Shown here piece after piece: positions 1,699 to 44,068 of a stretch of 64,000 bases of DNA; the first letter of the stretch is position 1; each line of letters opens with the position of its first letter. The DNA lies in the IMG/VR virus record IMGVR_UViG_3300011624_000001, positions 24,436 through 88,435 of that record. One strand, 5' to 3'. The notes under the pieces were generated by a model that searched no databases, was not told where the DNA came from, and saw only the letters and a program-made list of their open reading frames with translations. Source of the DNA: a virus. Its lineage: Duplodnaviria; Caudoviricetes. The translations under genes and the position numbers were made by a program.

Positions 1699-1979
1699 GC
1701 CGCTGGGCGATGCTGGGGCTATGGTTCGTCGCGCAACTGGCCCATATCTTCGCTTCCGTGCGCATGATCTTTTTCATCATCGGCGGAAGTGAGCGCGGTG
1801 AGCGCGTCCTGCTCGCGTATGACCGCCTCGGTAACGTGGCTGCCGGTGGCGAGGACAATGAAACCATCAGCAGCCGTGCCAATCGTGAGCGCCAAGCGGG
1901 ATCACGCGGCTGGTGCCTGCTCTGTCGCATCCTTGATTGGTTCGACAAAGACCACTGCGAGAAATCGGCCGGGGTGTAG
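1695..1979 (+). CDS. Conserved small phage protein of tail-fibre loci
   Basis: GTGA overlap with the previous stop; DRLGN..GGEDNETISSR..W..LCRIL..DHC motif. Confidence 0.6.
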   Translation: MSRWAMLGLWFVAQLAHIFASVRMIFFIIGGSERGERVLLAYDRLGNVAAGGEDNETISSRANRERQAGSRGWCLLCRILDWFDKDHCEKSAGV

Positions 1980-2019
1980 GAAAACCGGGGCCAATCTAGC
2001 GCCCCGCCAGCCCGAGAAT
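1977..2019 (+). promoter_or_regulatory. Putative late promoter 1 (GGAAAA-N29-GAGAAT)
   Basis: GGAAAA 1979-1984; hexamer 2014-2019. Confidence 0.75.
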
Positions 2020-2045
2020 GAGGCAACTAATCATTCGAGGACGTA

Positions 2046-4205
2046 ATGCTCAATCTCAGCCCCAAGATCACGACGGCGGGCCTTGCGCTGGTGCGCGAGG
2101 CCGCGAAAACGCCCGGCGTCAGCGTGGCGATCACCAACGTCGCCATCGGCTCCCAGTCCTATGTGCCAATCGGCAACGAGGTCGCGCTAAAGCAGGAATT
2201 CGGCCGCTTCCCGGTCAGCGGCGGCGCATCCATCGACGGCACCCAGGTCAATCTCGGCTTCACGATCACCAACACCGACCAGCAGAACCGCTCGACCAGC
2301 AGCCAGTGGGTCGGCGAAATCGGCTTCTACGCGGGCGACACCCTGTTCGCGGTGCTCAGCAAGCTCGAACCAGCGTTCTTCTACAAGTCGCAGGACATCG
2401 ACATCCCGATTGTGTACACAATCGACATCACCGCCCTGCCGCTGGGCAGCGTCACGGTCAATTCCACAGCCGCCCCTGGCACGCTGTCGGCACTGATTGC
2501 CAACCACGAAGCGAATGCCGATGCCCACCCTGGCCTGCTCATCACGATCAGGAACGCCATCGTGAGCATGTTCGCGGCCGCAAACGGTTCGAGCCTGCTG
2601 GGCTTCAAGCAAGGCGGCGTGGGCTCGGTGACGCGGACGATGGAAGCGAAGGCGGCCGAGTCCGTGAGCGTGAAGGACTATGGCGCGCTGCCCGGCTCCC
2701 CTTCGTCGCAGCATGCCGCATTCATCAACGCCATCAACGCCCTGACGGCTGCGGGCGGCGGGCGGCTGGTCGTCAACGGTGGCGGCGACTACCTGATCGG
2801 CCAGTCCATCCTGCCTTCCCTCATCACCAGCGACATCGAAATCGTATTCGAGGCAGGCGCTCGGCTGGTGGCTGCGTCCGGCCTCAGTACCCCGGTCATG
2901 GACCTGCGCGCATCGAATTCAGCGATCACCGGCCGCATTCTAACGATCCGCAACCCGCGCATCGACTGTAGTGCAGGCAGCACGCAGGCTGGCGTGCAGG
3001 GGTGCAGCGGGATCAGCGCGCAGTATTTCAAGTCGCTTGTGATCGAGAACCCGTCGATCTATGGCGGTGAGAATCCGAACACCTCGACCGCCGATAGCGG
3101 CATCACGCCGATCTGCTGCAACTACGTGCTCATCGACGGCGGCGATATTCGCGGATTCAGCGACGGCGGCGTGTACATCGGCGGCGACAACACCGCAGGA
3201 GCGGTCGGCGATGGCGTGACGGCGACCGTTCGCGGCGTCCTCATCGAACGCTGCAACAATGCCGTATTGGCAAAGCGCGACCTGAACCACTTGCGCGTGA
3301 CCGGCTGCGCCATCAACGAGTGCAATTCAGGCGTCGTCGGCGCTGAAATCACCACGCCGAATTACACCAACCCGGTGCGCAGGCTGGAGGTGGAGGGCAA
3401 CCGCTTCAAGAAGATTGTCGCGAACATCGTGCGCTTCCGTGGCCCATGCAAGGGCAGCATGCGCGACAACGAGGTGGAGGACTGGGGCTACCGCTTCGAC
3501 GGCACCAGCCCGGCCGGAGCAAACGCATATGCTGTGGTCATCCAGGGCAGCACCGGCATCGACGTGGCCGACAACGATTTCAGGATCATCGACTGGCCGC
3601 AGAACGATCAGCGCGCGGTCCTGCTCCAGAACGTCACGCTCAACGGCCAGCAGTACGTCCAGGGCGGCCACCTGTTCTCGGGCAACAGCTACCGCAACGT
3701 CGGGCGCGTCGTCGTGGAGGAAGTCGGCGGGGCCGCCAGCGCGTACCTGAACGAATACTACGAAGGGCTGTCTACCGCGAAATTCTCGGGCCTGAACGCC
3801 GAGAGCGTAGTTACGTTCCGCGAGCAGGGAAAGCCGGGCCTTTGGCTACGCAGCGCCGGATTCGAGCGCCAGATGGGGCACCCGGCAATCATCGACAGCG
3901 CCACCGGCCTGACCCTGGCAGAGAAGGATTCCGGCTACACGTACACCAACGTTGGAGCCCCGGCCGAGGCGGTCTTCAATCTGCCACCGGCAGCGAAGGG
4001 GCTCACGTTCGACTTCATCTGCATGGATGACTTCGGCGTGCGGCTTCAACCGGCTGCTGGCGACCTGATCCGCGTGAACGCTTCAATCTCGCCTGCTGGC
4101 GGCGCAGCAAAGTCCATCGTGGTCGGATCGGCGATCAGGCTGACGGCGGTGGATGCGACATACTGGGTCGCGCAAAGCCTCACCGGGACGTGGGTGTGGG
4201 CCTAG
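2046..4205 (+). CDS. Tailspike/RBP 2 with right-handed beta-helix (pectate-lyase-like depolymerase)
   Basis: Shared N-terminal anchor; VSVKDYGA neck motif; repeated Asn/Ile/Gly beta-helix rungs. Confidence 0.8.
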   Translation: MLNLSPKITTAGLALVREAAKTPGVSVAITNVAIGSQSYVPIGNEVALKQEFGRFPVSGGASIDGTQVNLGFTITNTDQQNRSTSSQWVGEIGFYAGDTLFAVLSKLEPAFFYKSQDIDIPIVYTIDITALPLGSVTVNSTAAPGTLSALIANHEANADAHPGLLITIRNAIVSMFAAANGSSLLGFKQGGVGSVTRTMEAKAAESVSVKDYGALPGSPSSQHAAFINAINALTAAGGGRLVVNGGGDYLIGQSILPSLITSDIEIVFEAGARLVAASGLSTPVMDLRASNSAITGRILTIRNPRIDCSAGSTQAGVQGCSGISAQYFKSLVIENPSIYGGENPNTSTADSGITPICCNYVLIDGGDIRGFSDGGVYIGGDNTAGAVGDGVTATVRGVLIERCNNAVLAKRDLNHLRVTGCAINECNSGVVGAEITTPNYTNPVRRLEVEGNRFKKIVANIVRFRGPCKGSMRDNEVEDWGYRFDGTSPAGANAYAVVIQGSTGIDVADNDFRIIDWPQNDQRAVLLQNVTLNGQQYVQGGHLFSGNSYRNVGRVVVEEVGGAASAYLNEYYEGLSTAKFSGLNAESVVTFREQGKPGLWLRSAGFERQMGHPAIIDSATGLTLAEKDSGYTYTNVGAPAEAVFNLPPAAKGLTFDFICMDDFGVRLQPAAGDLIRVNASISPAGGAAKSIVVGSAIRLTAVDATYWVAQSLTGTWVWA

Positions 4206-4248
4206 TAGGAAAAGGCCAGCGATAGCGCAATTTCGGGAGCCTCAGAAT
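4206..4248 (+). promoter_or_regulatory. Putative late promoter 2 (GGAAAA-N29-CAGAAT)
   Basis: GGAAAA 4208-4213; hexamer 4243-4248. Confidence 0.75.
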
Positions 4249-4274: not shown

Positions 4275-6623
4275 ATGCTAACCCGAAATCCACGCATCAC
4301 CGCTGCCGGTCTTGCCCTGTTCACCAAGCAGGCTCCCGGCTTTTCCGTCGCCCTCACGCATGTGGCGGTCGGCACGGCCGTTTATGACCCGACGGGCAAC
4401 GAGACAGCACTGAAAAGTGAGTTTGCCCGATTCCCCATCGCCACCGGGGTGGACATTTCAGCCAGCCAGCTCCAGGTGGGGGCGCTGGTCAAGGACACCG
4501 ACCCGCAGGGCCGCTCGGCCAACAACAAGTGGATTGGCGAGATCGGCTTCTACGTCGGCACGACCTTGCTGGCCGTGATGAGCCAGTCAGCGCGCGCGCT
4601 GTTTTACAAGTCGCCCGAGCTTGACGTGGCGCTCAGCTACATTCTGGACTTCTCTACCCTGCCCCCTGGCTCCCTGACGGTCGGCGCGCCCAAGCTGTCC
4701 GAGGACATTCGACTGGCCGCCCAAACCGCCCTGGCGAGCGCGCAGTCGGCGACCGGCGCAGCAGCGACGATCCGCGCGACCTATTACGGCAATTCGGCAG
4801 TCGCCCCGACGCTGCGCCCGGATGGCACGGCCCGCCAGAAAGGCGACCGCTATTTCGATACCGTTGCCAATGCAGAGCGCACTTGGAACGGTGCGCTGTG
4901 GGGCATCGCGAACCCCGATGCCGCTTCCCTGGCGAAGCCAAGCGGCGCAAGCATCGTCGGCTACAAGACGGGCAGCGTCGCAACCGCGCTCGAAGAGGTG
5001 GACGGCAAGATCAACGGCACCACGCAGCAAATCAACGACCTGCGAAATCGCATGTATCGCCGGTCTGTCGTCCACAAAATCCCCATGCGGTTCCCTGGCT
5101 ATGCGACCGTGATCGCAGCCAAGGGCTACACCTACCTGTTCCCGCAATCGTTCACGATGCACGCGACCGAGCTGTACATTCTGTACGGGGCCAACACAGG
5201 CGCGGCCGGGACGGGCTCGTTCGTGGCGATACACAACCGTGCAACCGGCGCTTATATTTCCGGCTTCTCTATCGGCGAATCCTATGGCGAGGGCATTGTC
5301 GTCAAGATGGAAGGGACCAAGAAATACCTGTACGCGCGCCACAAGTCGAGCGTCCTGGGCAAGTACAACATCACGAACCGGCCCGCCAACCTGAGCACCC
5401 TCGCGCCCGAGTCCACCACCGACCTGGGCTTCTATTCGTTCCTGAGCTGGGACGGTTCGCAGTTCACGATGCAGGTCTTGACGCGCAGCTCGCGCGCGTC
5501 GCAGCCGCGCAACCTGTTCGTGCGGCTCGATGAGTCGCTGGCGCTCCAGTCCCGGCTGGAGTTCAACCGGCTCGATGCATGGAATCTCAGTGCCGAGCAG
5601 CGCGACCTTGCGCCGAAGCTCCAGGGCTTCTCGCACTACCGGGGCGGCTACGTGCTCGGCTACGGCGCGACGCACTACTACGGCGGGGCGAAGAAGCAAA
5701 GCGACTTGTGCGGCATTAAGCTGTTCACGTCCGCGGGCGATCCGACTGAATCGGCGCTGATGAACCCGGATGCCTTCATCGACATTCTGCGCGCCAAGGG
5801 CTATTCGTGCGACCTGATCGAGAACGAGGGCATGCACTATGCCGATGATGGCGAGCTGTATGGCATGTGGGTAACGAGCAGCCATACGAACACCGGCAAT
5901 TACGGCATCCTCATCACGCGCGAAATGGGCGGCGACATCGACTGCACGGCAGCGGCGACGGCCGCCACGCCGGGCGCGTCGCTGGAGCACATGCTCGCGA
6001 AAGTGGATCACGACGACAAGGGCATCAAGAACCCGATGACCGGCGCGCCGTTCACGACGCTTGTCGAAATCGTGGAGTTCATGCGCGAAACGCAGCTCTC
6101 GCAATACGGTTTCACCACGACCGGATCGACCATCAAGGACTTGGCGGGCAACAACCTACCGGGCGGGCATATTTTCATGCTCATGACGGGCAATTACTTC
6201 TCCTGGGAGGTGCTGGACTATTCCTCCAGCGGCATCGCGACTTCGTGGATTTCGGGGGAAAAAGGTGCGCTGGTCCAGGCCTACCCAGCCTTCACGCTGG
6301 GCGGGCAAGCGTCCGAAACCATGAACAGCGTCAGCGTCGGCGTGGGTTCGGCCGCAAAGATCGCCATTGGCCGCAATACGACCGATCTGGTGAGCTTGTT
6401 CGAGGCCTGGGGCGCAGATGGCGTCATCGGTCGCATTTCCACCATCGGGGCCAATACCCGCTTCTATATTGGCAAGGGCGCGTTCATTACGGGCGGCACC
6501 GGGTCGCCAGAAGGCGTGGTAAGTGCGCCGCGCGGGTCGATGTATCTGCGCGAGGATGGAACGGGGCAATGCCGCTACGAGAAGGAATCGGGCAACGGCA
6601 ATACTGGCTGGGTACAGCGATAA
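4275..6623 (+). CDS. Tail fibre/RBP 3, probable beta-propeller receptor-binding domain
   Basis: Shared anchor; RPDG..GDRYFDT segment; PQSF..QGF..ENEG pattern; C-terminal GTGSPEGVVSAPRGSMY..KESGNGNTGW motif. Confidence 0.75.
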   Translation: MLTRNPRITAAGLALFTKQAPGFSVALTHVAVGTAVYDPTGNETALKSEFARFPIATGVDISASQLQVGALVKDTDPQGRSANNKWIGEIGFYVGTTLLAVMSQSARALFYKSPELDVALSYILDFSTLPPGSLTVGAPKLSEDIRLAAQTALASAQSATGAAATIRATYYGNSAVAPTLRPDGTARQKGDRYFDTVANAERTWNGALWGIANPDAASLAKPSGASIVGYKTGSVATALEEVDGKINGTTQQINDLRNRMYRRSVVHKIPMRFPGYATVIAAKGYTYLFPQSFTMHATELYILYGANTGAAGTGSFVAIHNRATGAYISGFSIGESYGEGIVVKMEGTKKYLYARHKSSVLGKYNITNRPANLSTLAPESTTDLGFYSFLSWDGSQFTMQVLTRSSRASQPRNLFVRLDESLALQSRLEFNRLDAWNLSAEQRDLAPKLQGFSHYRGGYVLGYGATHYYGGAKKQSDLCGIKLFTSAGDPTESALMNPDAFIDILRAKGYSCDLIENEGMHYADDGELYGMWVTSSHTNTGNYGILITREMGGDIDCTAAATAATPGASLEHMLAKVDHDDKGIKNPMTGAPFTTLVEIVEFMRETQLSQYGFTTTGSTIKDLAGNNLPGGHIFMLMTGNYFSWEVLDYSSSGIATSWISGEKGALVQAYPAFTLGGQASETMNSVSVGVGSAAKIAIGRNTTDLVSLFEAWGADGVIGRISTIGANTRFYIGKGAFITGGTGSPEGVVSAPRGSMYLREDGTGQCRYEKESGNGNTGWVQR

Positions 6624-6626
6624 GGA

Positions 6627-6962
6627 ATGAGCATGAAAAAGAACTGTGTAGTGCATGAGGGGAAGGTGATCCACGTCGGCCAGTGGGAGGCGCACGTCAT
6701 CCACTATGACCACGACGATGGGGGCGCGCTGGTGCCTGTCGCGACCGCTAACCCGATGCCCGAGGGGGCTGTCCAGGGCGAATTCGACATCGAGTACACC
6801 ACGGACGGCAGGATCGTTCTGGCGTCCGATTATCGCGAGCTGCGCGCCGCCGAGTACCCGTCAATCGGCGACCAGCTCGACGCACTGTTCAAGGGTGGGG
6901 CCGCCGCGAAGGCCATGGCGGACCGCCTGGGTAGCATCAAGAAAAAGTACCCGAAGCCGTAG
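6627..6962 (+). CDS. Tail fibre chaperone-like protein
   Basis: YRELRAAEYPSIGDQLDAL..IKKKYPKP motif; directly follows RBP 3. Confidence 0.65.
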   Translation: MSMKKNCVVHEGKVIHVGQWEAHVIHYDHDDGGALVPVATANPMPEGAVQGEFDIEYTTDGRIVLASDYRELRAAEYPSIGDQLDALFKGGAAAKAMADRLGSIKKKYPKP

Positions 6963-7002
6963 GAAAACCAGCGGCAGAAGGCAGCGGGGCGAACCTCAGA
7001 AT
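6960..7002 (+). promoter_or_regulatory. Putative late promoter 3 (GGAAAA-N29-CAGAAT)
   Basis: GGAAAA 6962-6967; hexamer 6997-7002. Confidence 0.75.
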
Positions 7003-7031: not shown

Positions 7032-10001
7032 ATGATTAACCTGAATCCCACCCTCACCGCCGCTGGCTTCGCGCTTTTCCGGGGCCAGTCTCCAGGCTTC
7101 AGTGTGGCTATCACGCACGTCGCTTTTGGCGCGCAAAAGTATGACCCGCTCGGCTTCGAGTCGAGCCTGAAATCGGAACTGGTTCGCTTCCCGATTGACG
7201 GCTCGGCGCTGATTTCGCCAAGTGCGATTCAGGTTGGCGTCCTGATGAAAAATGCCGCTCCAGACGGCCGCACCGCCAACGACAAGTGGATTGGCGAAAT
7301 CGGCTTCTATGCGGGCGATACGCTGTTCGCGGTGCTGTCGCAGGCCGCCGCCTACCTGTTCTACAAGTCGCCGGACATCGACATTCCTGTGACGTACGTG
7401 CTCGATTTTTCGGTTCTGCCAGCGGGCTCGATCACCGTCAACAACGATGCGCAGTCGGCAAGCATCGCCCTCGCCTCCAGCTACGCCCAGGCGGCCGCCA
7501 AAACGGCCCTGAACGCGCAGCAGGTCATTTCCTCGACCTATTACGGCCCGTTCGCTGCCGAGCCTACAGCTCGCCCGGATGGCACGGCGCGCCAGCCGGG
7601 CGACCGCTATTTCGACACGAAGGCCAAGGCCGAGAAAACGTGGTCCGGCACCGACTGGTATGCGGCGAACCTCAATGCGGCAATCCTGGCATCCAAGGAC
7701 GGTGCGGCGAGTGTCGGTGCGACGTGGTTCGGCGGCGTCCTCGGCAAGCTGTCCGACCTTGCCACAGCCGCAGGCTCAGGCTTGGTCGGGTTCGTGCAGG
7801 GCGGCGTAGATGCGGTTGCCCGCAGCATCCAGGACAAGCTGCGCGAGCAATATGACGTGCGTGATTATGGTGAATTCATCGCTGGCGGCACGTCGGCGGC
7901 CGTGGGCAAAATCAATCTGGCAACCCTGAACAGGGCGATCCTGGCTGTAAGCAATGCCGGGGGCGGCATCCTGCGACTGCCGCCAGGGACGTTCGTGTTC
8001 AGCGCTCTGCCGGGCTCGACCGTGCCCGACAGGTGTATCGTGTTGCGCCGCAATGTGGAGCTGCGCGGCTGCGGAGAGGGCATCACGGTCCTGCGCCGCA
8101 ACCAGCCGTCCACGCTGATGACCAACGCGCCCAACGGTGCGGTCAACATGGGCTACGGCGGGGGCGAGAACAACGTCGGGCTGCGCGACCTGACGCTAGA
8201 CGGCAATGCGGCCTACTCGGCGCTGTACCCGGCCAACATTTCCTATTGGTTCTGTTCCGACCATATCCGCATCCGGCGCGTGACCTTCCTCGATACTCCA
8301 GGCCTGCATGCCATCGACATGAACGGATGCCGCGATGCTGTAATCGAGAAGTGCAGCTTCAAGGGTCAGAATGCGGAACTGACGGCCGTTTTCTCGCCGA
8401 ATGACCCGAATTACTTCCCTGAGGCTATTCAGCTTGCTGGGGAAACGAACGGCTATACCATCGAGGCGCTGGCACCGAAGAAGATCAAGGTTATCGACTG
8501 CTATTTCGGCCCATCGGAAACCCAGGGGTCGCATTGGGTGGCCGTGGGCAATCACGCTCTGAATTACAACGTGCAGACCGAAGACGTGCTCTTGAGGGGC
8601 AACATCATCGACAACCCGCTGCGCCATGGATTCCGCCCGTTCGCATGGAAGCGCACGAAGATCATCGCCAATACCTTTATTGGCGGCAGTGTTGGTATCA
8701 CGCTTAGTTCAGCCGTTGACGTAAAGGACTCTACCGGAACGCCCACCGGCTTCTCGCAAAGCGGCGAGGATATGCTCATCGCCCTGAACCACTTCAAGGA
8801 TGTTGCGAACGAGTGTGTTTCCGTGTCGGCAGGCCACGTTGGCGCGACCACCTACCAGAAGTGGCGCAATCTGGCCATCATCAACAACACGGTCACAGGC
8901 AAGCTCACTACCTGCACCCCGTTTAACATGCGTTGGGTGTCGAGGCTGACGATCAGCGGCAATAACCTCAACGGTGATTTTTACCGTGGCATCTACATGC
9001 GCTTCTGTGACGCGGTGCGAGTTACCAACAACCACATCGAGAACACGAATCTTGAGGCATTGCTGGTGGTCGAAGAAGTGGAAACCGCGTGGTCCGGCAC
9101 CGGCTTGACCGCTGACTATGTCATCAGCGGCAATTCGCTGGTCAATACCGGCTACTCGGGGATGAACCTCCAGGCCATCGTCGGCGGCACCATCACCGGC
9201 AATACCGGCAAGAACTTGGGCTCTGTGGCTCCGGGCAAGCGGCCATTCATTGGCGTCAGCGCCTTCTGCAAGAACCTCGACATCACGGGGAATCAGGCTG
9301 CTGGCGGCACCTATGTCGTTGACGTTTCGGCGAGCTGCGCGGACATTCGTGTGGGTCCGAATAATGCGATTGGCATGGACAGTGGCACTATTCGCAACCT
9401 CGCCACCGGGAACAGCGCCACGTCGGACATGACGGCTACGAAAGGCAGTTGGACGCCCTACAGCGATAACCTCGACAGCTTCGGTTCGGCCGTGCGTCGC
9501 TATGCGCAGGGCTTCTTCTTCGACCTGCGCGTGCGTAATAACCTGCCGGTGCTGGCCGTTGTCGCCCAGGCCTACGTGTCGGCATCGGTGACGGGCACGA
9601 CGGACGAAACGGTCCTGGCTACGGTGAAGATCCCGGCAGGCTTGCTCGGCCCGAACGATATGCTCGAAATCTCGGCGCACTGGGGCTTCAACAACAACGC
9701 CAACATCAAGACGCCGAAGATCAAGCTCGCAGGCGTGGCCTACTACCAGCCGAGCATCACGACCAGCCTCCAGGCATTGAGCATCACCCAAATCCGCAAT
9801 GCCAACTCGCAAACCGCGCAGATCGGCGGCGTGAGTTCGGCAGGTGTGCAGCACGGCATCGGCAGCAGCGGCGCGGCCCTGGCTACGTCCGCCATCAACA
9901 TGGCCCAGGAACAGACCCTGACCTTTACCGGCACGCTGGCAAACGCGGCCGACAACATCACGCTACTCGGCTACACCGTCAAGTACGTGCCCGCACCATA
10001 A
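7032..10001 (+). CDS. Tailspike/RBP 4 with beta-helix depolymerase domain
   Basis: Shared anchor; RPDG..GDRYFDT; DVRDYG neck; HAIDMNG..EAIQL beta-helix motifs. Confidence 0.8.
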   Translation: MINLNPTLTAAGFALFRGQSPGFSVAITHVAFGAQKYDPLGFESSLKSELVRFPIDGSALISPSAIQVGVLMKNAAPDGRTANDKWIGEIGFYAGDTLFAVLSQAAAYLFYKSPDIDIPVTYVLDFSVLPAGSITVNNDAQSASIALASSYAQAAAKTALNAQQVISSTYYGPFAAEPTARPDGTARQPGDRYFDTKAKAEKTWSGTDWYAANLNAAILASKDGAASVGATWFGGVLGKLSDLATAAGSGLVGFVQGGVDAVARSIQDKLREQYDVRDYGEFIAGGTSAAVGKINLATLNRAILAVSNAGGGILRLPPGTFVFSALPGSTVPDRCIVLRRNVELRGCGEGITVLRRNQPSTLMTNAPNGAVNMGYGGGENNVGLRDLTLDGNAAYSALYPANISYWFCSDHIRIRRVTFLDTPGLHAIDMNGCRDAVIEKCSFKGQNAELTAVFSPNDPNYFPEAIQLAGETNGYTIEALAPKKIKVIDCYFGPSETQGSHWVAVGNHALNYNVQTEDVLLRGNIIDNPLRHGFRPFAWKRTKIIANTFIGGSVGITLSSAVDVKDSTGTPTGFSQSGEDMLIALNHFKDVANECVSVSAGHVGATTYQKWRNLAIINNTVTGKLTTCTPFNMRWVSRLTISGNNLNGDFYRGIYMRFCDAVRVTNNHIENTNLEALLVVEEVETAWSGTGLTADYVISGNSLVNTGYSGMNLQAIVGGTITGNTGKNLGSVAPGKRPFIGVSAFCKNLDITGNQAAGGTYVVDVSASCADIRVGPNNAIGMDSGTIRNLATGNSATSDMTATKGSWTPYSDNLDSFGSAVRRYAQGFFFDLRVRNNLPVLAVVAQAYVSASVTGTTDETVLATVKIPAGLLGPNDMLEISAHWGFNNNANIKTPKIKLAGVAYYQPSITTSLQALSITQIRNANSQTAQIGGVSSAGVQHGIGSSGAALATSAINMAQEQTLTFTGTLANAADNITLLGYTVKYVPAP

Positions 10002-10013: not shown

Positions 10014-10337
10014 GTGTCGCCGCACTCCCCTGCATCGACCTCTGCATTCGTCAAGGCCGTCCGCGCGTTCTCCCTGAGCACGCCGGACTGGGCCGAGGCG
10101 ATCCGCTATTTCACCAAGCCGGACGAGCGAACCGACATCACCCTGATTGCCGAGCGGGTCTACGGCAACCGGGGCGAGTTCATGACCGTGTTCGCTGCGG
10201 CCGGGCTCGATACCCTCGAACAAGTGCTGGACGAGCGGCAACTGGTGCTGCCGACCAGCGCCCAGTTGCAGCTCATCAAACGACAGACAGGATACCTGAC
10301 CGATGCAGAGAAACGCGCGTATAGCGCCCTCCGTTAG
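10014..10337 (+). CDS. Baseplate protein, P1 gp26-like
   Basis: TKPDE..DITLIAERVYG LysM/tail-X-like motif; good RBS (AGAGG). Confidence 0.6.
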   Translation: MSPHSPASTSAFVKAVRAFSLSTPDWAEAIRYFTKPDERTDITLIAERVYGNRGEFMTVFAAAGLDTLEQVLDERQLVLPTSAQLQLIKRQTGYLTDAEKRAYSALR

Positions 10338-11331
10338 CGCGGCTACCGCCCGGCTCACTTCGGCCCGGCGAGAGGCTCAGGAGGCCGCTGAATTCGATCT
10401 GGCGCGGCGGCAGGCGGCGCAGACCATCCTGCGCCCGAACGAGGTATCCGGCGAGTATGATGCTGGCCGCCTGCTCACGACGACGCTGCGCGGCGAGGTG
10501 CGGGCGCTCACCCAGGACGACATCAGGGCGTTCCAGTCGAACGTCCAGCAGCTCAAGAAGAAATTCAAGGGCGGGATCACGGCCCAGTCCGTCATCGACC
10601 TTGCCCTGGAGTCGGACAAGACGCGCGCGAACAAGCAGATCAACATGGCCGTGCCCGCCTCGATCATGGGCGGCAAGGTGCATTTCATCACCAACGCCGG
10701 GCCGGATTCGGACGTGGCGCGCCACCACGTCCACGTCGAGTTTCTGGACTTCGATGCGGCCGTGGGCGCGTCGCCGAACGAGCCGAAGAAGCTGGGCAAG
10801 CTGGTGGCGGGCGGCCGCCTGCGCTTCGACTGCGATTGCGGCCGCCACACGTTCTGGTATCGCTACATCGCCACCATCGGCAAGTACAACACCGGGCGGG
10901 CCGAGACGGGCTACCCGAAGATCAGGAACCCGAAGCTGATGGGCGTGGCGTGCAAGCACGTCCTGCGCACCATGCACGTCATCCTCAAGGACAGCGCCGT
11001 GCAGCTCAAGCTGGCCCAGTCGGTGCTCAAGGCGCGCGACGTGCTCGACGGCCGCAAGGTCAAGGCCGAGCGCGTCAAGGTGGCCGAGCTGCGCGCCATG
11101 GCGGACGCCCAGGCGGGTAAGCGCAAGAGCAGCACCAACCTGCGCACGTCGGCCGAGAAGAAGCAAAAGGCGGCCGTCGAGAAGGCCCGGCGCGATATGA
11201 AGAAGGCGGCCGTCGAACGGGCCAACCCGACCGCGAACCTGCGGCAGATCGAGCGGCATGCGCGCTCGCTGCTCGACCTGGGCGCGATCACCCAGGCGCA
11301 GTATGACCAAATTGTAAAGGCAGCAAAATGA
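10303..11331 (+). CDS. P1-like tail stability protein with SWIM-like Zn site (gp25-like)
   Basis: CDCGRH..YPKIRNP..ACKH motif; adjacent to the gp26-like gene. Confidence 0.55.
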   Translation: MQRNARIAPSVSAATARLTSARREAQEAAEFDLARRQAAQTILRPNEVSGEYDAGRLLTTTLRGEVRALTQDDIRAFQSNVQQLKKKFKGGITAQSVIDLALESDKTRANKQINMAVPASIMGGKVHFITNAGPDSDVARHHVHVEFLDFDAAVGASPNEPKKLGKLVAGGRLRFDCDCGRHTFWYRYIATIGKYNTGRAETGYPKIRNPKLMGVACKHVLRTMHVILKDSAVQLKLAQSVLKARDVLDGRKVKAERVKVAELRAMADAQAGKRKSSTNLRTSAEKKQKAAVEKARRDMKKAAVERANPTANLRQIERHARSLLDLGAITQAQYDQIVKAAK

Positions 11332-21108: not shown

Positions 21109-21152
21109 TTCGGGTGCGCTGCCCGTTTTTCCATTCCTGAACCGGACCTTTG

Positions 21153-34542: not shown

Positions 34543-34560
34543 CCGCCCGAACCCCGGCAA

Positions 34561-34588
34561 GCCCGTGCGATCGCGCGGGTTTTTTTTC
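34561..34588 (+). terminator. Intrinsic terminator after moron
   Basis: CCCGTGC-GATC-GCGCGGG followed by T8. Confidence 0.8.
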
Positions 34589-34599: not shown

Positions 34600-34642
34600 T
34601 AGGAAAACCGCGAGAAATGCCCCTGTTGTGGTGCCGCAAAGT
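34600..34642 (+). promoter_or_regulatory. Putative late promoter 7 (GGAAAA-N29-CAAAGT)
   Basis: GGAAAA 34602-34607; hexamer 34637-34642. Confidence 0.7.
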
Positions 34643-35807: not shown

Positions 35808-36682
35808 TCGCGATAGAGGGAATCTCGCCCGCGTTCCTGCTGGCGGCCTGCCTGCGCTATGACATGGCACCGATCCCGGTGACGTTCGAGGCACAGATTC
35901 GCCTGACCAGTGAAACGGCCCAGGTCGTGCAGGACGGCGCGCTGATCCGCGTAAATGAGATCCCGTTTCGGGTCATCAAGTGCGAGCCGCTGCGCAATGC
36001 GGGCGGCAGCGTGCAGGGAGACTTGCCGCTGTCGGCCGTGGCGATCACGGCGTTCCCTGATGCCCTGGTGGGCGTGGCGCGCAGGCGTCGCGCGGCCGTC
36101 ATCGGCATGAGCACGTCTTTCTCGACCATCTACCGGGCTTGCGGCGCAACCATCGGCGTTGACGGGGATATGAACATCGGCCGGTTCGCGTGCTTCAAGG
36201 GCGAAGTGCCCACGATGCAGCTCGCGCGGGTGCTGCAAGAGGAATCCGCGGTGCTGGTCTGGAAGGCTGGCCGGGTCGCCCTGGTGCGCCTGCGCGACCT
36301 CATGGCGCAGGAGCCGATTGCCGGGCTGACGGTGACGGCATCGGAAGACGTGCAAAGCGACTTTCTCGAAGCCGACGAAATCCCGCAGTACGTGTCCACC
36401 GGCCCGGACGGTGCATTCCTGCTCGGCGAGCGCCGCAACGAGGCCCAGGCGGTCATGTACGCGCCACGAAAGACCTCGCGCGAGCTGGGCCTGATGGGGC
36501 GAGTGCTGGTGCGCCGCAAGATCGTCACCGGACACCCGAACCTCGAAGTGCAGGCCGGGGCCGTGATCGACGTTCAGGGCATTCCCATGGCCGTCATGAC
36601 GGCCGTTCACTACATGCAAAACGGGACCGACGGCGGCGACGTGTCCCAGTATTCGCGCTACTGGCTAGGGAGCTTTAAATGA
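35804..36682 (+). CDS. Baseplate hub protein, P1 gp6-like
   Basis: LRYDMAPIPVTFE motif; precedes the spike gene. Confidence 0.6.
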   Translation: MIAIEGISPAFLLAACLRYDMAPIPVTFEAQIRLTSETAQVVQDGALIRVNEIPFRVIKCEPLRNAGGSVQGDLPLSAVAITAFPDALVGVARRRRAAVIGMSTSFSTIYRACGATIGVDGDMNIGRFACFKGEVPTMQLARVLQEESAVLVWKAGRVALVRLRDLMAQEPIAGLTVTASEDVQSDFLEADEIPQYVSTGPDGAFLLGERRNEAQAVMYAPRKTSRELGLMGRVLVRRKIVTGHPNLEVQAGAVIDVQGIPMAVMTAVHYMQNGTDGGDVSQYSRYWLGSFK

Positions 36683-37290
36683 TCGGACTGATGCCCGCCG
36701 AGGTCGATTCCATCGACCGTGAGAAGCGCATCGCTCGGGTGCGCATACCGGGCCTGACCGACGGCGCAACGGAGCTGCCCGAGGCGCAGTTCTGCAACCC
36801 AGTCGGCGACAAGAGCGAGCACACGGAAATTCGCATCTTGCCGGGCGACCGCGTATGGCTCGCGTTCGAGGGCGGCGACCCGCGCTATCCCGTCATCGTC
36901 GGCTACCGCCCGAAGAATCAGGAAAACGGCGTCGATTGGCGGCGCTTCCATCACGCAAACTTCCAGTTCGATGCCGATGACCAATTCATCATCAATGCGA
37001 AAACCGTCACGGTCAACGCGGAGAAGGTCGTCGTCAATGCCAAGCAGATCGAGGCCAACGCGAGCGAAAAGGCGACTGTCGTATCCCCGGAGGTGCTGAT
37101 TGACTCGCCCGATTCCAAGTTCACTGGGAAGGTGGAGGTGGCCGGGGCTTTCACCTACAAGGCGGGCATGACGGGCACAGGCGGCGCGGACATTGGCGGG
37201 TCCATGAAGAACAACGGCGTGAACATCGGCAGCACGCACACGCACGGCGGTGTCGCCACCGGCAGCGGCAAGACCGGCAACCCATCATAA
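36679..37290 (+). CDS. Baseplate central spike (gpV / P1 gp5-like)
   Basis: OB-fold RVRIPGL..PGDRVWLAFEGGD..P.I.G; C-terminal THTHGGV metal-binding apex. Confidence 0.85.
   Translation: MIGLMPAEVDSIDREKRIARVRIPGLTDGATELPEAQFCNPVGDKSEHTEIRILPGDRVWLAFEGGDPRYPVIVGYRPKNQENGVDWRRFHHANFQFDADDQFIINAKTVTVNAEKVVVNAKQIEANASEKATVVSPEVLIDSPDSKFTGKVEVAGAFTYKAGMTGTGGADIGGSMKNNGVNIGSTHTHGGVATGSGKTGNPS
36919..36961 (+). promoter_or_regulatory. Putative intragenic late promoter 8 (GGAAAA-N29-CAAACT), upstream of hdf
   Basis: GGAAAA 36921-36926; hexamer 36956-36961 identical to that of the darB promoter. Confidence 0.5.
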
Positions 37291-37300
37291 ATACAGGCAC

Positions 37301-37780
37301 ATGAAAACACTGATTTTCGATTTCTTCAAAGCGTCCGACAAGGACAAGTCCATCGCCAAGGCGAAGCGCTATTTCGAGCAGGCCGGGGCAAGCGTCACAT
37401 CGGTTGACGTGGACGCCAAGGTCAAGCGCGTGGCAGGCGTGTCGTTCCGCGACGTGCATTTCGGCTTCGCGGACAGCCAAACCATCAGCTTCGGCGTCAA
37501 GGAAACCGGCGACGTGTATCAGGTCAAGGTCAATGGCCGCCTGACGCCACTCAAGCATCAGGACGACCACCTCAAGGCTATCGGCGAGCTGGTCGCGGCG
37601 ATGGCAAAGGGCCGCGTCAAGTTCCAGTTGGCGCTGGCAAAGGTCAAGGTCGAGCTGCCCAAGTCGATCCGCACCGCCGCGCCAAAGATGGAAGTGGCGC
37701 TGCGCGAGCAAATCGCGGCCGTCGATGAGGCTATCGGCGTGGCCCAAGAACGCCTTGCTGCGCTCCAGCCGACCAGTTAG
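37301..37780 (+). CDS. hdf: Hdf-like protein (stand-alone DarA_N domain)
   Basis: KRVAGVSFR..FADSQ..VKETGDVYQVKVNG..PLKHQDD motif. Confidence 0.65.
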   Translation: MKTLIFDFFKASDKDKSIAKAKRYFEQAGASVTSVDVDAKVKRVAGVSFRDVHFGFADSQTISFGVKETGDVYQVKVNGRLTPLKHQDDHLKAIGELVAAMAKGRVKFQLALAKVKVELPKSIRTAAPKMEVALREQIAAVDEAIGVAQERLAALQPTS

Positions 37781-37820
37781 GAAAACTCGCGACGGCCGCC
37801 CCTTGCGGCCGCTTGAAAAT
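37778..37820 (+). promoter_or_regulatory. Putative late promoter 9 (GGAAAA-N29-GAAAAT)
   Basis: GGAAAA 37780-37785; hexamer 37815-37820. Confidence 0.75.
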
Positions 37821-37898
37821 GAAGTCTCTGCATGTGCGGGGTTCCGCGCATCGGTTTTTGTAGTGAATCACATTCCAATTTCTTTATAGGGCAACACC

Positions 37899-39533
37899 AT
37901 GAGCGGAACTACCCCGAAGTACACCCCGCAGGATGCGAGCGAGCTGCAATCGTTCGTCGCCAGCGCAACCCAAAACGACGGCAAGTCGGGCGCGATGTTC
38001 GACTCGGCCGCCGCCAGCGAAACCGCATTCGACTCGATCAAGAGCGAATCGGGCGGCGCACCGGCCATCGTTACCGAGCTGCTGGGCAAGGCCACCAGCG
38101 ACGATGAAAAGAAAATCGTCAAGGCCATCTTCGACGGCGCGCAGGCATACAACCGCGAACACGGCTTCATGCCGAGCGGCGACGTGCTGCTGTCGGCCGT
38201 GCATCAGGCCATGGGCGTCTACGACTCGGTGAACAACGGCCACCACAACCAGATTTCGGTATTCCCGAACGCGCCAATCGTCGCCATCATGGGCGCGATG
38301 GCCGAAGCGACCCCGTTTGCTGGCTACCTGCCAGCCGACAAGGGCTCGAACGAAGCACGCCTCATCATCGTGAACCACACCGCTGGCTCGAACTGGGGCG
38401 ACTACAAGACCGACGACATCATGGACGGCGTGGCCGCTGGTGGCGACTACATCAGCTCGTCGCGCACCAAAGAGCTGGCCGCACCGAACGACACCGCGAA
38501 CTACAAGTTCAACTTCGTCGCCAACAAGGACGGCGGCCCTGCCTTGAACCTGCTGCGCGGCCGTACCCTGGTCTACGTCAACGGCCTGCCAGCCATCACC
38601 GAAACCCCGAACGGTTCGAGCGGCGCGGCCAGCGTGCCGATCAGCGGCTTCATCACCCTGGGCGGCACCGAATACGCGCTGTCGGGCGTCGTCAAGCCTG
38701 CGAGCGGCGAAGTGATCGTCACCCCAACCCCCGCCCTGCCGGTCGGCTCCGTCGTGGCGGTCGAAGTGTTCGTCGATTACGAAAAAGACCCGAGCGTCAC
38801 CCCGCGCATGGCCGTCCAGGCGCGCAGCTACGCCCTGTTCGCCAGCCCGTACCGCGCCGTGTACCAGATCACGCCGGAAGCGCGCTCGCAGTTCGCCAAC
38901 GAAGTCGGCGTCGATGCTGGTGCCGAAGCGATGCTGGCCGTGCGCGGCCAGTACGCCCTGGAGCGCCACTACAACGCGATCCGCAAGGCCAAGATGATCG
39001 GCAAGTACGGCAACAGCGTGCCTTTCGACTTCGGCTACGCGGACCAGATTCTGCAAAAGACCATCCCGCAAATCTGGCAGAACTTCCAGTCGGTCCTGGG
39101 CGCCGTTTCGCAGCAGATGTCGGAAGACACCGCCGACCACGGCGTCACGCACCTGTACGTGACCAAGACCGTGCTGGCGATGTTCCAGTCGCTGCCGCGC
39201 GAGCTGTGGGAGCCGTCGGGCATCGTCGCCCGTCCTGGCATCTACCGCGCCGGTCGCCTGTTCGGCATGTACGAGGTGTACTACACCCCGAAAGGCCTGA
39301 ACGAATCGGCTGGCGGCGAGACTGCCGAAATCCTGTGCGTCGGCCGCTCGACCCAAACCGCGCGCTGCCCGATCATCTTCGGCGACGCATCGGCACCTGT
39401 GTTCGAGGCGCTGGGCCTGGGCACCGACCAGCTCTCGGGCTATGCCTTCAATGCGCGTTCGTTCACCACCGCGAACCCGCACCTGATGTCGGCCAAGGGC
39501 TGCGCGCTCATCACCGTGTCGAACCTCAAGTAA
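37899..39533 (+). CDS. Major capsid protein, P1 gp23-like
   Basis: 544 aa; strongly biased codons; P1 order 23-22-21-pmgG; GIVARPGIYRAGRLFG motif. Confidence 0.75.
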   Translation: MSGTTPKYTPQDASELQSFVASATQNDGKSGAMFDSAAASETAFDSIKSESGGAPAIVTELLGKATSDDEKKIVKAIFDGAQAYNREHGFMPSGDVLLSAVHQAMGVYDSVNNGHHNQISVFPNAPIVAIMGAMAEATPFAGYLPADKGSNEARLIIVNHTAGSNWGDYKTDDIMDGVAAGGDYISSSRTKELAAPNDTANYKFNFVANKDGGPALNLLRGRTLVYVNGLPAITETPNGSSGAASVPISGFITLGGTEYALSGVVKPASGEVIVTPTPALPVGSVVAVEVFVDYEKDPSVTPRMAVQARSYALFASPYRAVYQITPEARSQFANEVGVDAGAEAMLAVRGQYALERHYNAIRKAKMIGKYGNSVPFDFGYADQILQKTIPQIWQNFQSVLGAVSQQMSEDTADHGVTHLYVTKTVLAMFQSLPRELWEPSGIVARPGIYRAGRLFGMYEVYYTPKGLNESAGGETAEILCVGRSTQTARCPIIFGDASAPVFEALGLGTDQLSGYAFNARSFTTANPHLMSAKGCALITVSNLK

Positions 39534-39983: not shown

Positions 39984-41615
39984 ATGTTCTATCCTCACAC
40001 TCGCCAGTTGCAGGCCCAGCCGGGCGTGCAGCTCAACCCGCTGCGCGACAACACGGACGGGTTCTCGCCAGCGCCGACCGATCAAGCATTCGCCGTCGTC
40101 GGCCGGTTCAAGCGCGGCCGCATCGACGCGCCATTCCGCGTAAATCGCGGCAACATCAAGACGCGCCTGGGCAATGCCGAATCGCTGCGCGTGTCGGTCC
40201 TGAACGAAGCCCATGTGCAGACCAGCGAAGCGCTGGACGGTGGCGCTTACGAGGCGGTCGTGGCGCGCCTCGTCACGTCGGCTGCTGCCAACGGCTTCAT
40301 GGCCTTCAAGCTCGGCGCGGCGGGCGCGGCCTCGACGTTCGCTGTCTCGGCGGCGGTCCCGGAAGCGCCATTCCTGTTCCACCTGCAAATGCTGGACTGC
40401 TTCAACGACGGCTACCGCTTCGAGGTGTCGGCGCAGGCGGCCGTGGGCGCGGACGGCGTGACGGCGGCCCCGGCCAAGGTCATCACCCTGGCGATCCGCG
40501 AGCCGAACGGCAACCTGCTGTACGAATTCACCGGCTCGCTCGACCAGCTCGCGGTGGATGAATACGGCAAGGACTACTTCATCGGCTCGGTCATCGAAGC
40601 GCAAACCGATCTGGTCAAGATCGTGGTGGCCGCCAACGCAAACATCCCGGTCAATGCCGACTGCTACGGCCGCAACGCCGACGGCACGCAGCGCATCGCC
40701 GCCAGCGGCGCGGACCCGCTCGTCCTGTTCACCGAAGGCGGCACCGGCTATGTCGTGGCCGACTACGACGCGGCCGTGGCGCGCCTGGAAAACGGCCCGC
40801 TGGACTTCGGCTACATGATTAGCGGCGGCTCCCAAGCCCCTGCCCTGCTGTCGAAGCTCGGCCAGCTCGCCGTGCGCTCGAACCGCCAGTTCGCTTTCGA
40901 CGTTCCCGGCACCTTGACCCCGGCCGCTGCCGTCGCGTTCATGGCCCAGCTCAACCTGGATACGCACTACTGTCAAGCCTACTGGGCACCCCTGCTGACG
41001 GATGATCCCGTCAACGGCGGCAAGGCCTATATCGGCACCGCTGGCTACAACGTCGGCCTGCGCTGCGCTCGCAATGCGCAGACCAACGCCTACGGCCTCG
41101 CGCCGAAGAACTTCCCTGTCGCTGGCAAGGAATGGCCCCTGGTGCGCACTGGCGTCAAGCAGACGTACAGCCCTGCCGACCCGGAGCTGTCCGATCTGGC
41201 GAATGCGAAGATCAACCCCGTCATCTTCCAGAGCTACACCGACGGCGGCCGCTTCGTGTTCAGCGACTCGATCACTTGCGCCAAGGTGTCGGTGTCGGCC
41301 CGCAAGCTCATTTCCGTCGCCGAGATGAGCAGCACCATTGACGATATGGTGGCGAAGTTCGGTCGCGAAGTGCTGCAACTGCCGATGGAAACCGCGATCA
41401 GCAAGACCGAGAAATTCCTGAAAGCGACTTTCGACGGCGCGCGCTCGTCCGACTGGTTCGTGCCGTCGTCCGAGAAGGAGCTGGGCGAGAAGGGCTACAC
41501 GTTCAAGGTCGAGCGCAACAGCGTGCGTCCGAATGACCGCATGGACGTGACCTACGGCTGTCACTACGACGGCGTGGCGCGTGCAATCCACATCACCCAA
41601 ACCCTGTCGCGATAA
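39984..41615 (+). CDS. Tail sheath protein, P1 gp22-like
   Basis: VVGRFKRGRIDAPFRV N-terminus; AKINPV..FSDS.T C-terminal sheath motifs. Confidence 0.8.
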   Translation: MFYPHTRQLQAQPGVQLNPLRDNTDGFSPAPTDQAFAVVGRFKRGRIDAPFRVNRGNIKTRLGNAESLRVSVLNEAHVQTSEALDGGAYEAVVARLVTSAAANGFMAFKLGAAGAASTFAVSAAVPEAPFLFHLQMLDCFNDGYRFEVSAQAAVGADGVTAAPAKVITLAIREPNGNLLYEFTGSLDQLAVDEYGKDYFIGSVIEAQTDLVKIVVAANANIPVNADCYGRNADGTQRIAASGADPLVLFTEGGTGYVVADYDAAVARLENGPLDFGYMISGGSQAPALLSKLGQLAVRSNRQFAFDVPGTLTPAAAVAFMAQLNLDTHYCQAYWAPLLTDDPVNGGKAYIGTAGYNVGLRCARNAQTNAYGLAPKNFPVAGKEWPLVRTGVKQTYSPADPELSDLANAKINPVIFQSYTDGGRFVFSDSITCAKVSVSARKLISVAEMSSTIDDMVAKFGREVLQLPMETAISKTEKFLKATFDGARSSDWFVPSSEKELGEKGYTFKVERNSVRPNDRMDVTYGCHYDGVARAIHITQTLSR

Positions 41616-42402: not shown

Positions 42403-42404
42403 AT

Positions 42405-42447
42405 TGGGAAAACGGCCGCCAGAGGCCCATTTTCACGCGGCCATACT
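42405..42447 (+). promoter_or_regulatory. Putative late promoter 10 (GGAAAA-N29-CATACT)
   Basis: GGAAAA 42407-42412; hexamer 42442-42447. Confidence 0.75.
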
Positions 42448-42453
42448 GCGCGC

Positions 42454-43281
42454 ATGGCTATCACCGAAAAAAGCTCGAACGCGAGCGCATCGAAAATCCT
42501 CAAGTCGCACTGGGACGGCCTCTCGCCGCACCTGATCGCGCGCTTCTACCCGCTCAAGAAGGTGCAGGGCGGGTCGGGCTGGGTGCAAAGCCGCGACGTG
42601 CGGGAAGTGTCGGCCGCCGAGCGCTACAGCATTGACGACGGGTTCGAGGTGCATTGCCCGATCACGGACGGCACCAGCGAAATGACCCTCAACTGGACGA
42701 GCCCGTTCGAGAACGCGGGCGCGGAGTCCATCGCCACCACCCTGACGGCCATGCTGCAATCGGGTAACGCGGCTGCGATGCTGCAAACGGTGGCGCGGGC
42801 CATGGGCATGGACGCCAGCGGCACCAGCGTCGCGGCAACGCTGGAGAAGGCTACCGGCCGCACCGGCATCACCAAGCTCAATTCGACGCAGATTTTTAGC
42901 GGCATGCCGCCGATCAAGCTGTCCATGACGCTGCACTTTCGCGCCCTGTACGACCCCATCGCCGAGGTGCGCGACCCCATCGCGCAGATACAGAAATGGG
43001 GCACGCCGCAAATGCTGTCGGCCGATGGCGCTATCGCGGCCGGAGTCAAGGGCGCGGGCACAAATGACTTTATCGAAACCGTGTTCCCGTCGATCTCGCC
43101 CCAGGTCATCGGCATGCGCTATGGCGATATGACGTTGGAGCCGATGGTTATCGACAGCATTTCCGCGCCGTTCACGGCCCCGCGCTCGGACAAGGGCGTG
43201 CTGGTGCAGCAAAGCATCCAGATCACGCTATCCACCCTCACCGCTCTCGACCGTCGAGACATAGACAGGATTTACCGCTGA
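42454..43281 (+). CDS. P1 PmgG-like baseplate/tube-initiator protein
   Basis: LNWTSPFEN..TKLNSTQIFSGMPP..TLHFRA motifs; synteny with P1. Confidence 0.6.
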   Translation: MAITEKSSNASASKILKSHWDGLSPHLIARFYPLKKVQGGSGWVQSRDVREVSAAERYSIDDGFEVHCPITDGTSEMTLNWTSPFENAGAESIATTLTAMLQSGNAAAMLQTVARAMGMDASGTSVAATLEKATGRTGITKLNSTQIFSGMPPIKLSMTLHFRALYDPIAEVRDPIAQIQKWGTPQMLSADGAIAAGVKGAGTNDFIETVFPSISPQVIGMRYGDMTLEPMVIDSISAPFTAPRSDKGVLVQQSIQITLSTLTALDRRDIDRIYR

Positions 43282-44042
43282 TGATTACTTTCGCCCCGCT
43301 TCGCACTCGCCGCCTGGACGTGCAGCTACAAGAGCTGTCCATTGGCGACGAAATCGCCTTGTGCCACCTCCCCGAGCTGGCGCATGAGAAGTCCCTGACC
43401 ACGTTCCTTGAGCGCGCCGTGGAGGCCGCCAACGCGCCGACCGAGCGCCACGTCGCCAGTCCGCGCGCCTGGAGCGTTGGCGAGCGGCTGATGGTGCTGG
43501 CGCACTACTGCACGCACACCCGCGAGGATGGCCCGGATTACGCCGTCACGGACGTTTCGCGCCTGTCCGACTACCTCGACATCAGCAAGGATGCAAACGC
43601 GGCTCCTGCGGCCTTTGAGGCGTGCGGCGACCGCTGGGTGCTGCGCCCGCTCATCGGCGCGGCCGTGGAGGTGCTGGAGGGGCTGCAAGGCCAGATGGAG
43701 CTGCGCGGCCGCGAGTTCTGGATTGTCGGCGCGATGTCGGCGCAACTGCTGCGCGAGGGCGAGGCCATTCCCGACCCTGCAAGTGAGTTTGCCGAGTACG
43801 GCGAATGGCTCCAGCGCCGCATCGTCACGATGACCGCCATGCCCGGATCGGGCTTCGATGTGCTGTTCGCACGCTATGCCGAAGCGATGCAGGCGGGCGG
43901 CCAGTTCTTCCGCATTTGGTTCGATGAGCAGGGCGTGATCGTGCTGCCGAAGGAGGCCGGGGCGGTGACGCCACCGGCCCGATTTCCTGTTCATTCCGCC
44001 GTCGGCACAGTCGCGTTTTCACTTACAGGAAAAGCACACTGA
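43281..44042 (+). CDS. P1 PmgF-like morphogenesis/assembly chaperone
   Basis: Synteny; WSVGER...AHY and W.LRPL.G..VE.LE motifs. Confidence 0.5.
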   Translation: MITFAPLRTRRLDVQLQELSIGDEIALCHLPELAHEKSLTTFLERAVEAANAPTERHVASPRAWSVGERLMVLAHYCTHTREDGPDYAVTDVSRLSDYLDISKDANAAPAAFEACGDRWVLRPLIGAAVEVLEGLQGQMELRGREFWIVGAMSAQLLREGEAIPDPASEFAEYGEWLQRRIVTMTAMPGSGFDVLFARYAEAMQAGGQFFRIWFDEQGVIVLPKEAGAVTPPARFPVHSAVGTVAFSLTGKAH

Positions 44043-44068
44043 GGTGCTGGCGAGTTTGTTCTTAAACT
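44026..44068 (+). promoter_or_regulatory. Putative late promoter 11 for the lysis cassette (GGAAAA-N29-TAAACT)
   Basis: GGAAAA 44028-44033; hexamer 44063-44068. Confidence 0.6.

Follow-up and report, generated by a model that had tools for sequence, protein, structure and literature searches.

Predicted late promoters of a P1-like phage-plasmid pair a −10-like hexamer with an upstream box at a fixed distance of 29 bp

The DNA considered here, a stretch of 64,000 nucleotides (the window), comprises bases 24436-88435 of the virus record IMGVR_UViG_3300011624_000001 (IMG/VR; 88,435 bp, 63.8% G+C), an 88-kb element that, judged by its gene content, is a P1-like phage-plasmid. Its virion, Dar and lysis genes are preceded by a recurring two-part motif, in which the word GGAAAA (the box) is followed after 29 nt by a hexamer resembling a −10 element. 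We infer from the sequence that these box-hexamer sites are the late promoters of the element, an inference that covers the transcription start, the lateness of expression and the use of σ70 alike. On the reading that we consider likely, the hexamer would be recognized by RNA polymerase carrying the primary sigma factor, and the box, near −45, would be bound by a phage-encoded activator, for which the best candidate is a 232-amino-acid protein. Coordinates refer to the window unless they are given as genome positions, which refer to the whole record.

The pattern GGAAAA-N29-NANAVT has 11 matches in the window, all 11 on the plus strand and 0 on the minus strand, against an expectation of 0.17 and a maximum of 1 in 100 dinucleotide shuffles. 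An earlier description made from the nucleotide sequence with no database searches (the sequence-only reading) had listed 11 plus-strand sites, every one of which was recovered at its position; it had also named equal frequency in shuffled DNA as the outcome that would speak against a regulon, and the shuffled counts are far from equal. GGAAAA as such is present in 26 plus-strand copies, 11 with the hexamer and 15 without, and in 10 minus-strand copies, none of which has the hexamer; plus-strand copies lacking the hexamer had thus been noted correctly, although their number had been put at about ten. The whole 88,435-bp genome contains 14 sites, all on one strand, the additional three lying upstream of the window at genome 11096, 19213 and 23974. 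When spacings from 20 to 40 are tabulated, a single peak stands at 29 (13 sites) and every other spacing has 0-1. The position-weight scan against a shuffled background that the sequence-only reading had proposed places the 14 sites at 20-33 bits and the next best matches on either strand at 12-14 bits, which is the level of shuffled genomes; the weight matrix was built from the same 14 sites, and only the gap in score is informative. A blind scan that does not depend on the motif, counting the −10-like hexamers that follow each 6-mer at each spacing from 0 to 44, ranked GGAAAA at 29 highest on the plus strand together with TAGGAA at 31, which overlaps it, and gave nothing comparable on the minus strand.

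Alignment of the 14 sites shows that the box is longer than six bases, with the consensus tTAGGAAAAsc, and that the hexamer conforms to cAnAaT followed by G or T. A2 and T6 of the hexamer are invariant, and in −10 elements it is A at position 2 and T at position 6 that matter most. The logo has zero conserved positions in the 29-nt spacer and none at the −35 distance, in agreement with the earlier statement that a −35 consensus is lacking, and a σ70 consensus scanner detected 0 of the box-hexamer sites.

The setting of the sites argues for promoter function. Each is co-oriented with the genes downstream and stands before a virion, Dar or lysis block, and the early, replication and maintenance region of the genome has 0 sites. 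Two sites (window 14200 and genome 19213) fall in short gaps between divergent genes, so a rightward promoter must exist at both. The three sites said by the sequence-only reading to follow a terminator (29428, 34602 and 42407) do have a hairpin and T-run directly upstream, although a strict terminator scanner flags just one of these, at 34559-34582. The TAG stop codon said to supply the first G of the box in three cases is likewise present, at 1979 (where it ends the open reading frame [ORF] 1695-1979), 6962 and 37780. Taken together, a −10-like hexamer, no −35 element and a fixed box near −45 bear out the suggestion that the sites act as one activator-type class serving virion, Dar and lysis genes.

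Start codons provide a further line of evidence. In three cases, the earliest start codon available to the transcript is an ATG lying 5-6 nt past the hexamer without a Shine-Dalgarno sequence (window 14246, at 5 nt; window 42454, at 6 nt; and genome 19259). Transcription normally starts 6-8 nt after a −10 element, and mRNAs beginning at these three positions are therefore predicted to be leaderless. In a set of 140 sites from 11 genomes, the first ATG falls 5-8 nt past the hexamer at 24, mostly in orthologous genes, which also lack a Shine-Dalgarno sequence, and the control upstream of the box is flat; this distribution fits leaderless mRNAs and a true −10 element. With the A of the ATG taken as +1, the 6-mer box extends from −47/−46 to −42/−41 and the full box from about −50 to −41. 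If the hexamer occupies −12 to −7, the 6-mer would be placed at −47 to −42, consistent with an ATG at +1 at the three sites above.

The same layout, confined to the late-gene strand, is found in 12 related phage-plasmids from Burkholderia, Ideonella, Xanthomonas, Pseudomonas and Acinetobacter. Pattern searches of whole records located the motif solely on the late-gene strand in Burkholderia vietnamiensis plasmid pBVIE05 (CP000621.1), in Xanthomonas phage Rb1, whose portal protein is 52% identical to the one encoded here, and in an Ideonella dechloratans plasmid element. Spacing histograms of the Rb1 and Ideonella sequences have one peak at 29; the exception is pBVIE05, in which the spacing from TAGGAAAA to the hexamer is 29 at about 5 sites and 30 at 5-10 sites, compared with almost exclusively 29 in the other genomes. 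Four further complete IMG/VR records of 93-100 kb have 10-16 sites each, and a 45-kb IMG/VR fragment has the layout in a pattern scan, the only scan applied to it. An A-tract near −25 occurs at some sites in three of the IMG/VR relatives and is not conserved.

The geometry is kept while the box word changes by lineage, from GGAAAA to GGAAAG, GCAAAC and TGGAAC. A Pseudomonas psychrotolerans plasmid has the box TTCGGAAAG (GGAAAG word) and P. putida pKF715C the box GCGCAAAC (GCAAAC word), both at 29 nt; the use of different boxes by two Pseudomonas elements argues that the reader of the box is encoded by the phage rather than being a host factor. In Acinetobacter phage vB_AbaM_ABMM1, the top hit of the blind scan is TGGAAC, with 14 sites, and an A. 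oleivorans plasmid has GGAAC at spacings of 28-29. The latter plasmid (NZ_CP110255.1) also contains, at ~44.9-45.3 kb in reverse-complement coordinates, ~13 tandem 30-bp units (GAAGACATGTCATGATCCATACCTTTCATC) that swamp motif scans and are probably replication iterons or a partition site. The blind scan gave no signal at 29 nt in P1, Vibrio p0908 or Aeromonas pASP-135. The last two have other enriched 6-mers, GAAGAC(G) at 8 sites in pASP-135 (NZ_CP016381.1) and CCGGAGT at 5-6 sites in p0908 (NC_010113.1), located 7-9 nt before a −10-like hexamer, and a box at that distance is, by its position, of the P1-style −22 type; neither genome has an Lpa homologue at E ≤ 0.01. The 29-nt motif is undescribed in the literature surveyed on late promoters of P1-like elements and phage-plasmids and on pBVIE05, Rb1 and ABMM1, a coverage that is incomplete and makes the novelty provisional.

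The candidate activator (62199-62897, plus strand, 232 amino acids) is an XRE-type helix-turn-helix (HTH) protein encoded by the last regulator gene of the rightward early operon. The gene follows a NinB-like gene and directly precedes the small terminase gene, the place that lpa takes before the pac genes of P1. Residues of about 30-100 form an XRE HTH resembling that of the 434 repressor; the match to Pfam HTH_31 (E 2.6e-5) is under the cut-off, and a profile of the protein family matches ICEBs1 ImmR (E 2.5e-11) and the 434 repressor (E 3.7e-7). The predicted structure has the five helices of an XRE HTH, with fold matches at Z 8-9 and a root-mean-square deviation of about 2 Å, and the fold is shared with the N-terminal domain of lambda cI in its complex with sigma region 4 (1rio) and with the controller (C) proteins of restriction-modification systems. 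Residues of about 105-212 are predicted to form three long helices of no known family. This C-terminal domain has no informative match in the PDB by sequence, by Foldseek or in NCBIfam; VIA-align returned generic helical hairpins only, and ESM Atlas scores of 0.82-0.84 are at chance level.

When all ORFs were compared with five relatives, just one regulator-like protein, that of 232 residues, proved to be conserved throughout. Its homologues number in the dozens; many lie on contigs of 60-93 kb, and their annotation goes no further than XRE-family regulator. A homologue occurs in every genome with the 29-nt layout, including both Acinetobacter genomes, and none in P1, Aeromonas pASP-135 or Vibrio p0908, so that presence and absence of the protein match presence and absence of the layout. 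The recognition helix of the family also differs wherever the box differs: it reads NSTQLSQIE here and is nearly identical in pBVIE05, both of which have TAGGAAAA boxes; N(P/S)SKLSKVE in Rb1 and Ideonella; QCSQVSQWE with GGAAAG; GVTQISLFE with GCAAAC; and KNR(M/L)SEIE with GGAAC. In phage Rb1, a box-hexamer pair lies directly before the candidate activator gene itself, which suggests positive feedback. From co-occurrence and co-variation within one lineage, we judge it somewhat better than an even chance that this protein is the reader of the box.

Searches for established regulators of late transcription were negative. Neither tblastn nor HMMER nor hhalign detected an Lpa homologue in this genome or its relatives, the best tblastn match of P1 Lpa against the whole genome having an E of 6.2. 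The candidate was itself considered as a remote Lpa homologue on account of a weak BLAST patch around LNPxF (E 0.17), which hhalign (probability 0.2) did not support. The whole genome has no match at E ≤ 1 to Mor/C (PF08765), and Ogr/Delta (PF04606) has none at E ≤ 1 either. For sigma factors, PF04542 has no match and PF08281 has sub-threshold hits of 12-13 bits only, in small HTH ORFs. The large early proteins that were scanned against Pfam yielded zero polymerase-like families, and several of these proteins are without any Pfam match.

In the mechanism that we propose, the host's RNA polymerase with its primary sigma factor would recognize the NANAAT-type hexamer as a −10 element, without a −35 element. 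The asymmetric box tTAGGAAAAsc, at about −50 to −41 and exactly 29 bp before the hexamer, would be bound by a phage-encoded activator, which would keep the polymerase in a single, fixed register. The 232-residue XRE protein from the early rightward operon, as the most likely activator, would bind the box TTAGGAAAAC and turn on 14 units encoding tail fibres, baseplate, Dar cargo, portal and head, tail, and lysis proteins, three of which would start at the A of an ATG and give leaderless mRNAs. More tentatively, the protein may found a new family of late activators in which one XRE HTH sits on an asymmetric box and a helical tail grips the polymerase (sigma region 4 or the alpha subunit), replacing −35 recognition in one rigid register. 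Such a case of sigma appropriation would have displaced the Lpa/−22 system across a wide branch of P1-like phage-plasmids; we regard this extended proposal as possible, with the balance of probability against it.

Several observations weigh against the main proposal. Two window sites (36921 and 44028) are intragenic, and coding constraint may explain part of their conservation. No box-hexamer site in the genome stands before the terminase genes (window 63097-63996, genome 110-1666), which are probably read from the early operon; the earlier generalization that the motif heads every virion, Dar and lysis unit thus holds broadly but fails for these genes. XRE HTH proteins usually bind palindromes as dimers, and the box is single and asymmetric, with no second half-site or dyad seen in pooled logos or in counts of TTCC/TTTC offsets in any genome examined. 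All true homologues of the candidate that could be examined occur in the same virion-module family, one unrelated provirus sharing the HTH only, and the co-occurrence of activator and motif is confounded with common descent because the activator family is found only with this virion module. Some of these points lend weight to the view, which we nevertheless think unlikely, that the late promoters depend on an activator but that the box is read by another phage protein, small, early and fast-evolving, or by a modified host factor, the 232-residue protein being a repressor or some other regulator. The link between protein and box would then be no more than co-occurrence within one lineage; an asymmetric box would not have to be reconciled with the dyads that XRE proteins normally use; repressors are indeed the closest relatives of the HTH in NCBIfam and the PDB; and weak HTH signals appear in small early ORFs, among them 59975-60262 and 60602-60895. 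Conservation of these small ORFs, however, ends with pBVIE05, and that of the promoter layout extends further; the genome is without an Lpa, Mor/C, Ogr/Delta or sigma gene; and it is the XRE recognition helix that changes along with the box.

Explanations that dispense with a phage activator fare worse. The proximal UP subsite lies at about −46 to −38, and GGAAAA at −47 to −42 overlaps it; since the core of the box is A-rich in most lineages, the box could be a proximal UP-element-like site for the alpha subunit or a site for a host factor, making the promoters constitutive or host-controlled. We consider this quite improbable: the invariant GG and the flanking TA are unlike an UP element; UP elements do not require a register as strict as the 29 bp seen here; the two Pseudomonas elements have different box words (GGAAAG vs. 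GCAAAC), and an AT-rich Acinetobacter phage has TGGAAC; and holin and endolysin, if made constitutively from a plasmid prophage, would presumably be lethal. That the motif is not a promoter at all, and instead marks some other strand-specific DNA or RNA signal (for example in processing, antitermination or replication), would accommodate the two sites inside genes, yet sites also lie after terminators and in divergent gaps that need a promoter, A2 and T6 of the hexamer are invariant, as in a −10 element, the pattern of an ATG at +1 recurs across genomes, and no RNA structure or repeat common to the sites was found; we give this reading very little credence. Activator-dependent initiation by the primary-sigma polymerase, with the 232-residue protein on the box, is the account that we prefer.

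The sites of the window, all on the plus strand, are distributed along the late block as follows. The first (1979-2019, GAGAAT, 30.9 bits) heads a tailspike/fibre cassette at 2046-4205, the second (4208-4248, CAGAAT, 31.2 bits) a fibre cassette at 4275-6623, and the third (6962-7002, CAGAAT) a tailspike gene at 7032-10001 together with baseplate genes at 10014-11834. The fourth (14200-14240, GACAAT) occupies a 117-bp divergent gap before a gene for a DarA_N/pyrophosphatase-like protein (14246-16885), and the fifth (21068-21108, CAAACT) heads the gene for a DarB-like methylase-helicase (21150-27950). The site at 29428-29468 (AACAAT), after a terminator hairpin, heads the genes from portal (29497-31113) through transglycosylase (31895-34051), and that at 34602-34642 (CAAAGT), after the terminator at 34559-34582, heads the tail tube gene at 34677 and further tail and baseplate genes. 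An intragenic site (36921-36961, CAAACT) lies inside a baseplate gene (36679-37290), 288 nt upstream of an Hdf-like gene (37250-37780), and is kept at the same place in pBVIE05 and several IMG/VR relatives.

The site at 37780-37820 (GAAAAT) heads the gene for a 544-residue protein of phrog_1014 (37899-39533), probably the major head protein, and the sheath gene (39984-41615). Its 78-nt leader contains a GC-rich hairpin with a T-run at 37832-37851, ~5 nt past the predicted start, and pBVIE05 also has a hairpin in the matching position of its leader; the structure could be an mRNA-stabilizing 5′ stem or an attenuator. A further site (42407-42447, CATACT) follows a terminator and precedes a PmgG-like gene (42454-43281). 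The last site of the window (44028-44068, TAAACT) straddles the end of the gene at 43281-44042, upstream of the holin (44278-44625) and endolysin (44759-45400) genes, and is kept at the same place in pBVIE05, Xanthomonas phage Rb1 and the Ideonella element. A 70-residue ORF (44044-44256) with a GTG start at 44044 contains the hexamer of this site and is kept in four relatives; an in-frame ATG at 44104 would be a better fit to the predicted transcript than the GTG at 44044.

These genes make up a long plus-strand block containing three tailspike/fibre cassettes that share an N-terminal anchor, baseplate proteins, the DarA_N/pyrophosphatase-like protein, the DarB-like protein of 2266 residues, portal, transglycosylase, tail tube, Hdf-like protein, tail sheath, PmgG-like protein, holin and endolysin. 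The remainder of the window encodes an S24/HTH repressor, a Cro-like protein, lambda-P-like replication proteins and NinB, with the terminase genes at its end; the Ideonella element has a box-hexamer site just before its copy of the small terminase gene. Portal identity is 26% to P1 and 70% to B. vietnamiensis pBVIE05. Megablast found zero matches in the phage collection and, as its sole match in the plasmid collection, the DarB region of pBVIE05.

Beside the predicted late promoters, an identical 14-mer (TGTATGCGCTCATA) occurs three times, at window 14156-14169 (plus strand), at 28482-28495 (minus strand) and ~60 nt upstream of the late promoter at genome 11096. Its other strand ends in TACAAT and at 28468-28497 forms TTGACG-N18-TACAAT, which is σ70-like; a similar copy precedes the DarA gene of pBVIE05. 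The 14-mer seems to represent a second promoter class, of the conventional kind and possibly including an operator, that serves leftward accessory genes arranged back to back with late promoters.

If the proposed mechanism holds, it would represent a ready-made late-gene switch for a widespread but little-studied family of 75-100-kb phage-plasmids, which includes B. vietnamiensis pBVIE05, Xanthomonas phage Rb1, Pseudomonas plasmids and Acinetobacter temperate phages under study for therapy. It predicts transcription units, several leaderless mRNAs and a candidate master activator, and the natural variation in box word and recognition helix would amount to a built-in specificity swap from which orthogonal promoter/activator pairs for GC-rich hosts might be drawn.

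Among known systems, the nearest in geometry are the late promoters of phage Mu (Plys, PI, PP and Pmom, activated by C) and its middle promoter Pm (activated by Mor). C and Mor bind 16-bp dyads centred at −43.5 in promoters that have a −10 element and no −35 element (PMC2582627; PMC4390567). The sequence-only reading had regarded a position near −45 as unlike known systems, which the Mu activators refute, their position being essentially the one predicted here. In Mu as here, a −10 element is present without a usable −35. The site of the activator, which in Mu has its centre at −43.5, stands at a constant distance and touches or partly covers the −35 region, as would the box here on its predicted span of about −50 to −41; in Mu, and by our proposal here, one phage protein made earlier switches on several late units. 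The Mu sites, however, are imperfect dyads bound by a dimer of the Mor/C family, whereas the box here is asymmetric with no second half-site, the genome has no Mor-family gene, and the candidate is an XRE HTH protein with an unrelated helical tail.

P1 is comparable in gene content, with a virion module that matches in kind (DarA, DarB, Hdf-like, PmgG-like, sheath and portal). It, too, has many late promoters distributed ahead of the individual morphogenetic blocks, and their −10 words, CAGAAT and TACAAT among them, are similar. Its promoters, whose sites were taken from the annotated record, depend on Lpa (gp10) and host SspA and have a 9-bp −22 box (AAGTGACT type) placed 4 nt before the −10 element, as opposed to 29 nt here. 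The sequence-only reading had set P1 apart on this ground, and rightly, for Lpa is absent here and nothing is conserved near −22.

Lambda cI at PRM and the C proteins of restriction-modification systems bind around −42 and activate by touching sigma region 4. They differ from the system described here in that they act as dimers on palindromic operators and also repress; here, a single asymmetric box recurs at 14 putative target promoters, and the candidate has a 130-residue helical tail of no assigned function. At the middle promoters of T4, where MotA and AsiA act, the host −10 element is retained and an asymmetric box of 9-10 bp, set at a constant distance, stands in for the −35 element; the centre of the MotA box is near −30, some 12 bp away from the −10 element. 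No MotA- or AsiA-like gene was seen in family scans, which covered part of the ORFs. Promoters of alternative and extracytoplasmic function sigma factors have a −35/−10 spacing of about 16-17 bp, compared with 29 bp here.

By analogy, then, the system appears to function in the manner of the Mu late promoters, or of lambda cI and the restriction-modification C proteins in class II activation. It falls outside the Mor/C, Lpa, Ogr and MotA families, since the protein and site features that define those families were sought and are lacking. What is new is a box that is asymmetric, 9-10 bp long and placed almost without exception at 29 bp, together with the protein family of the candidate. P1-like virion modules accordingly appear to be served by two unrelated late systems, one built on a −22 box, as in P1, and the other on the −45 box described here.

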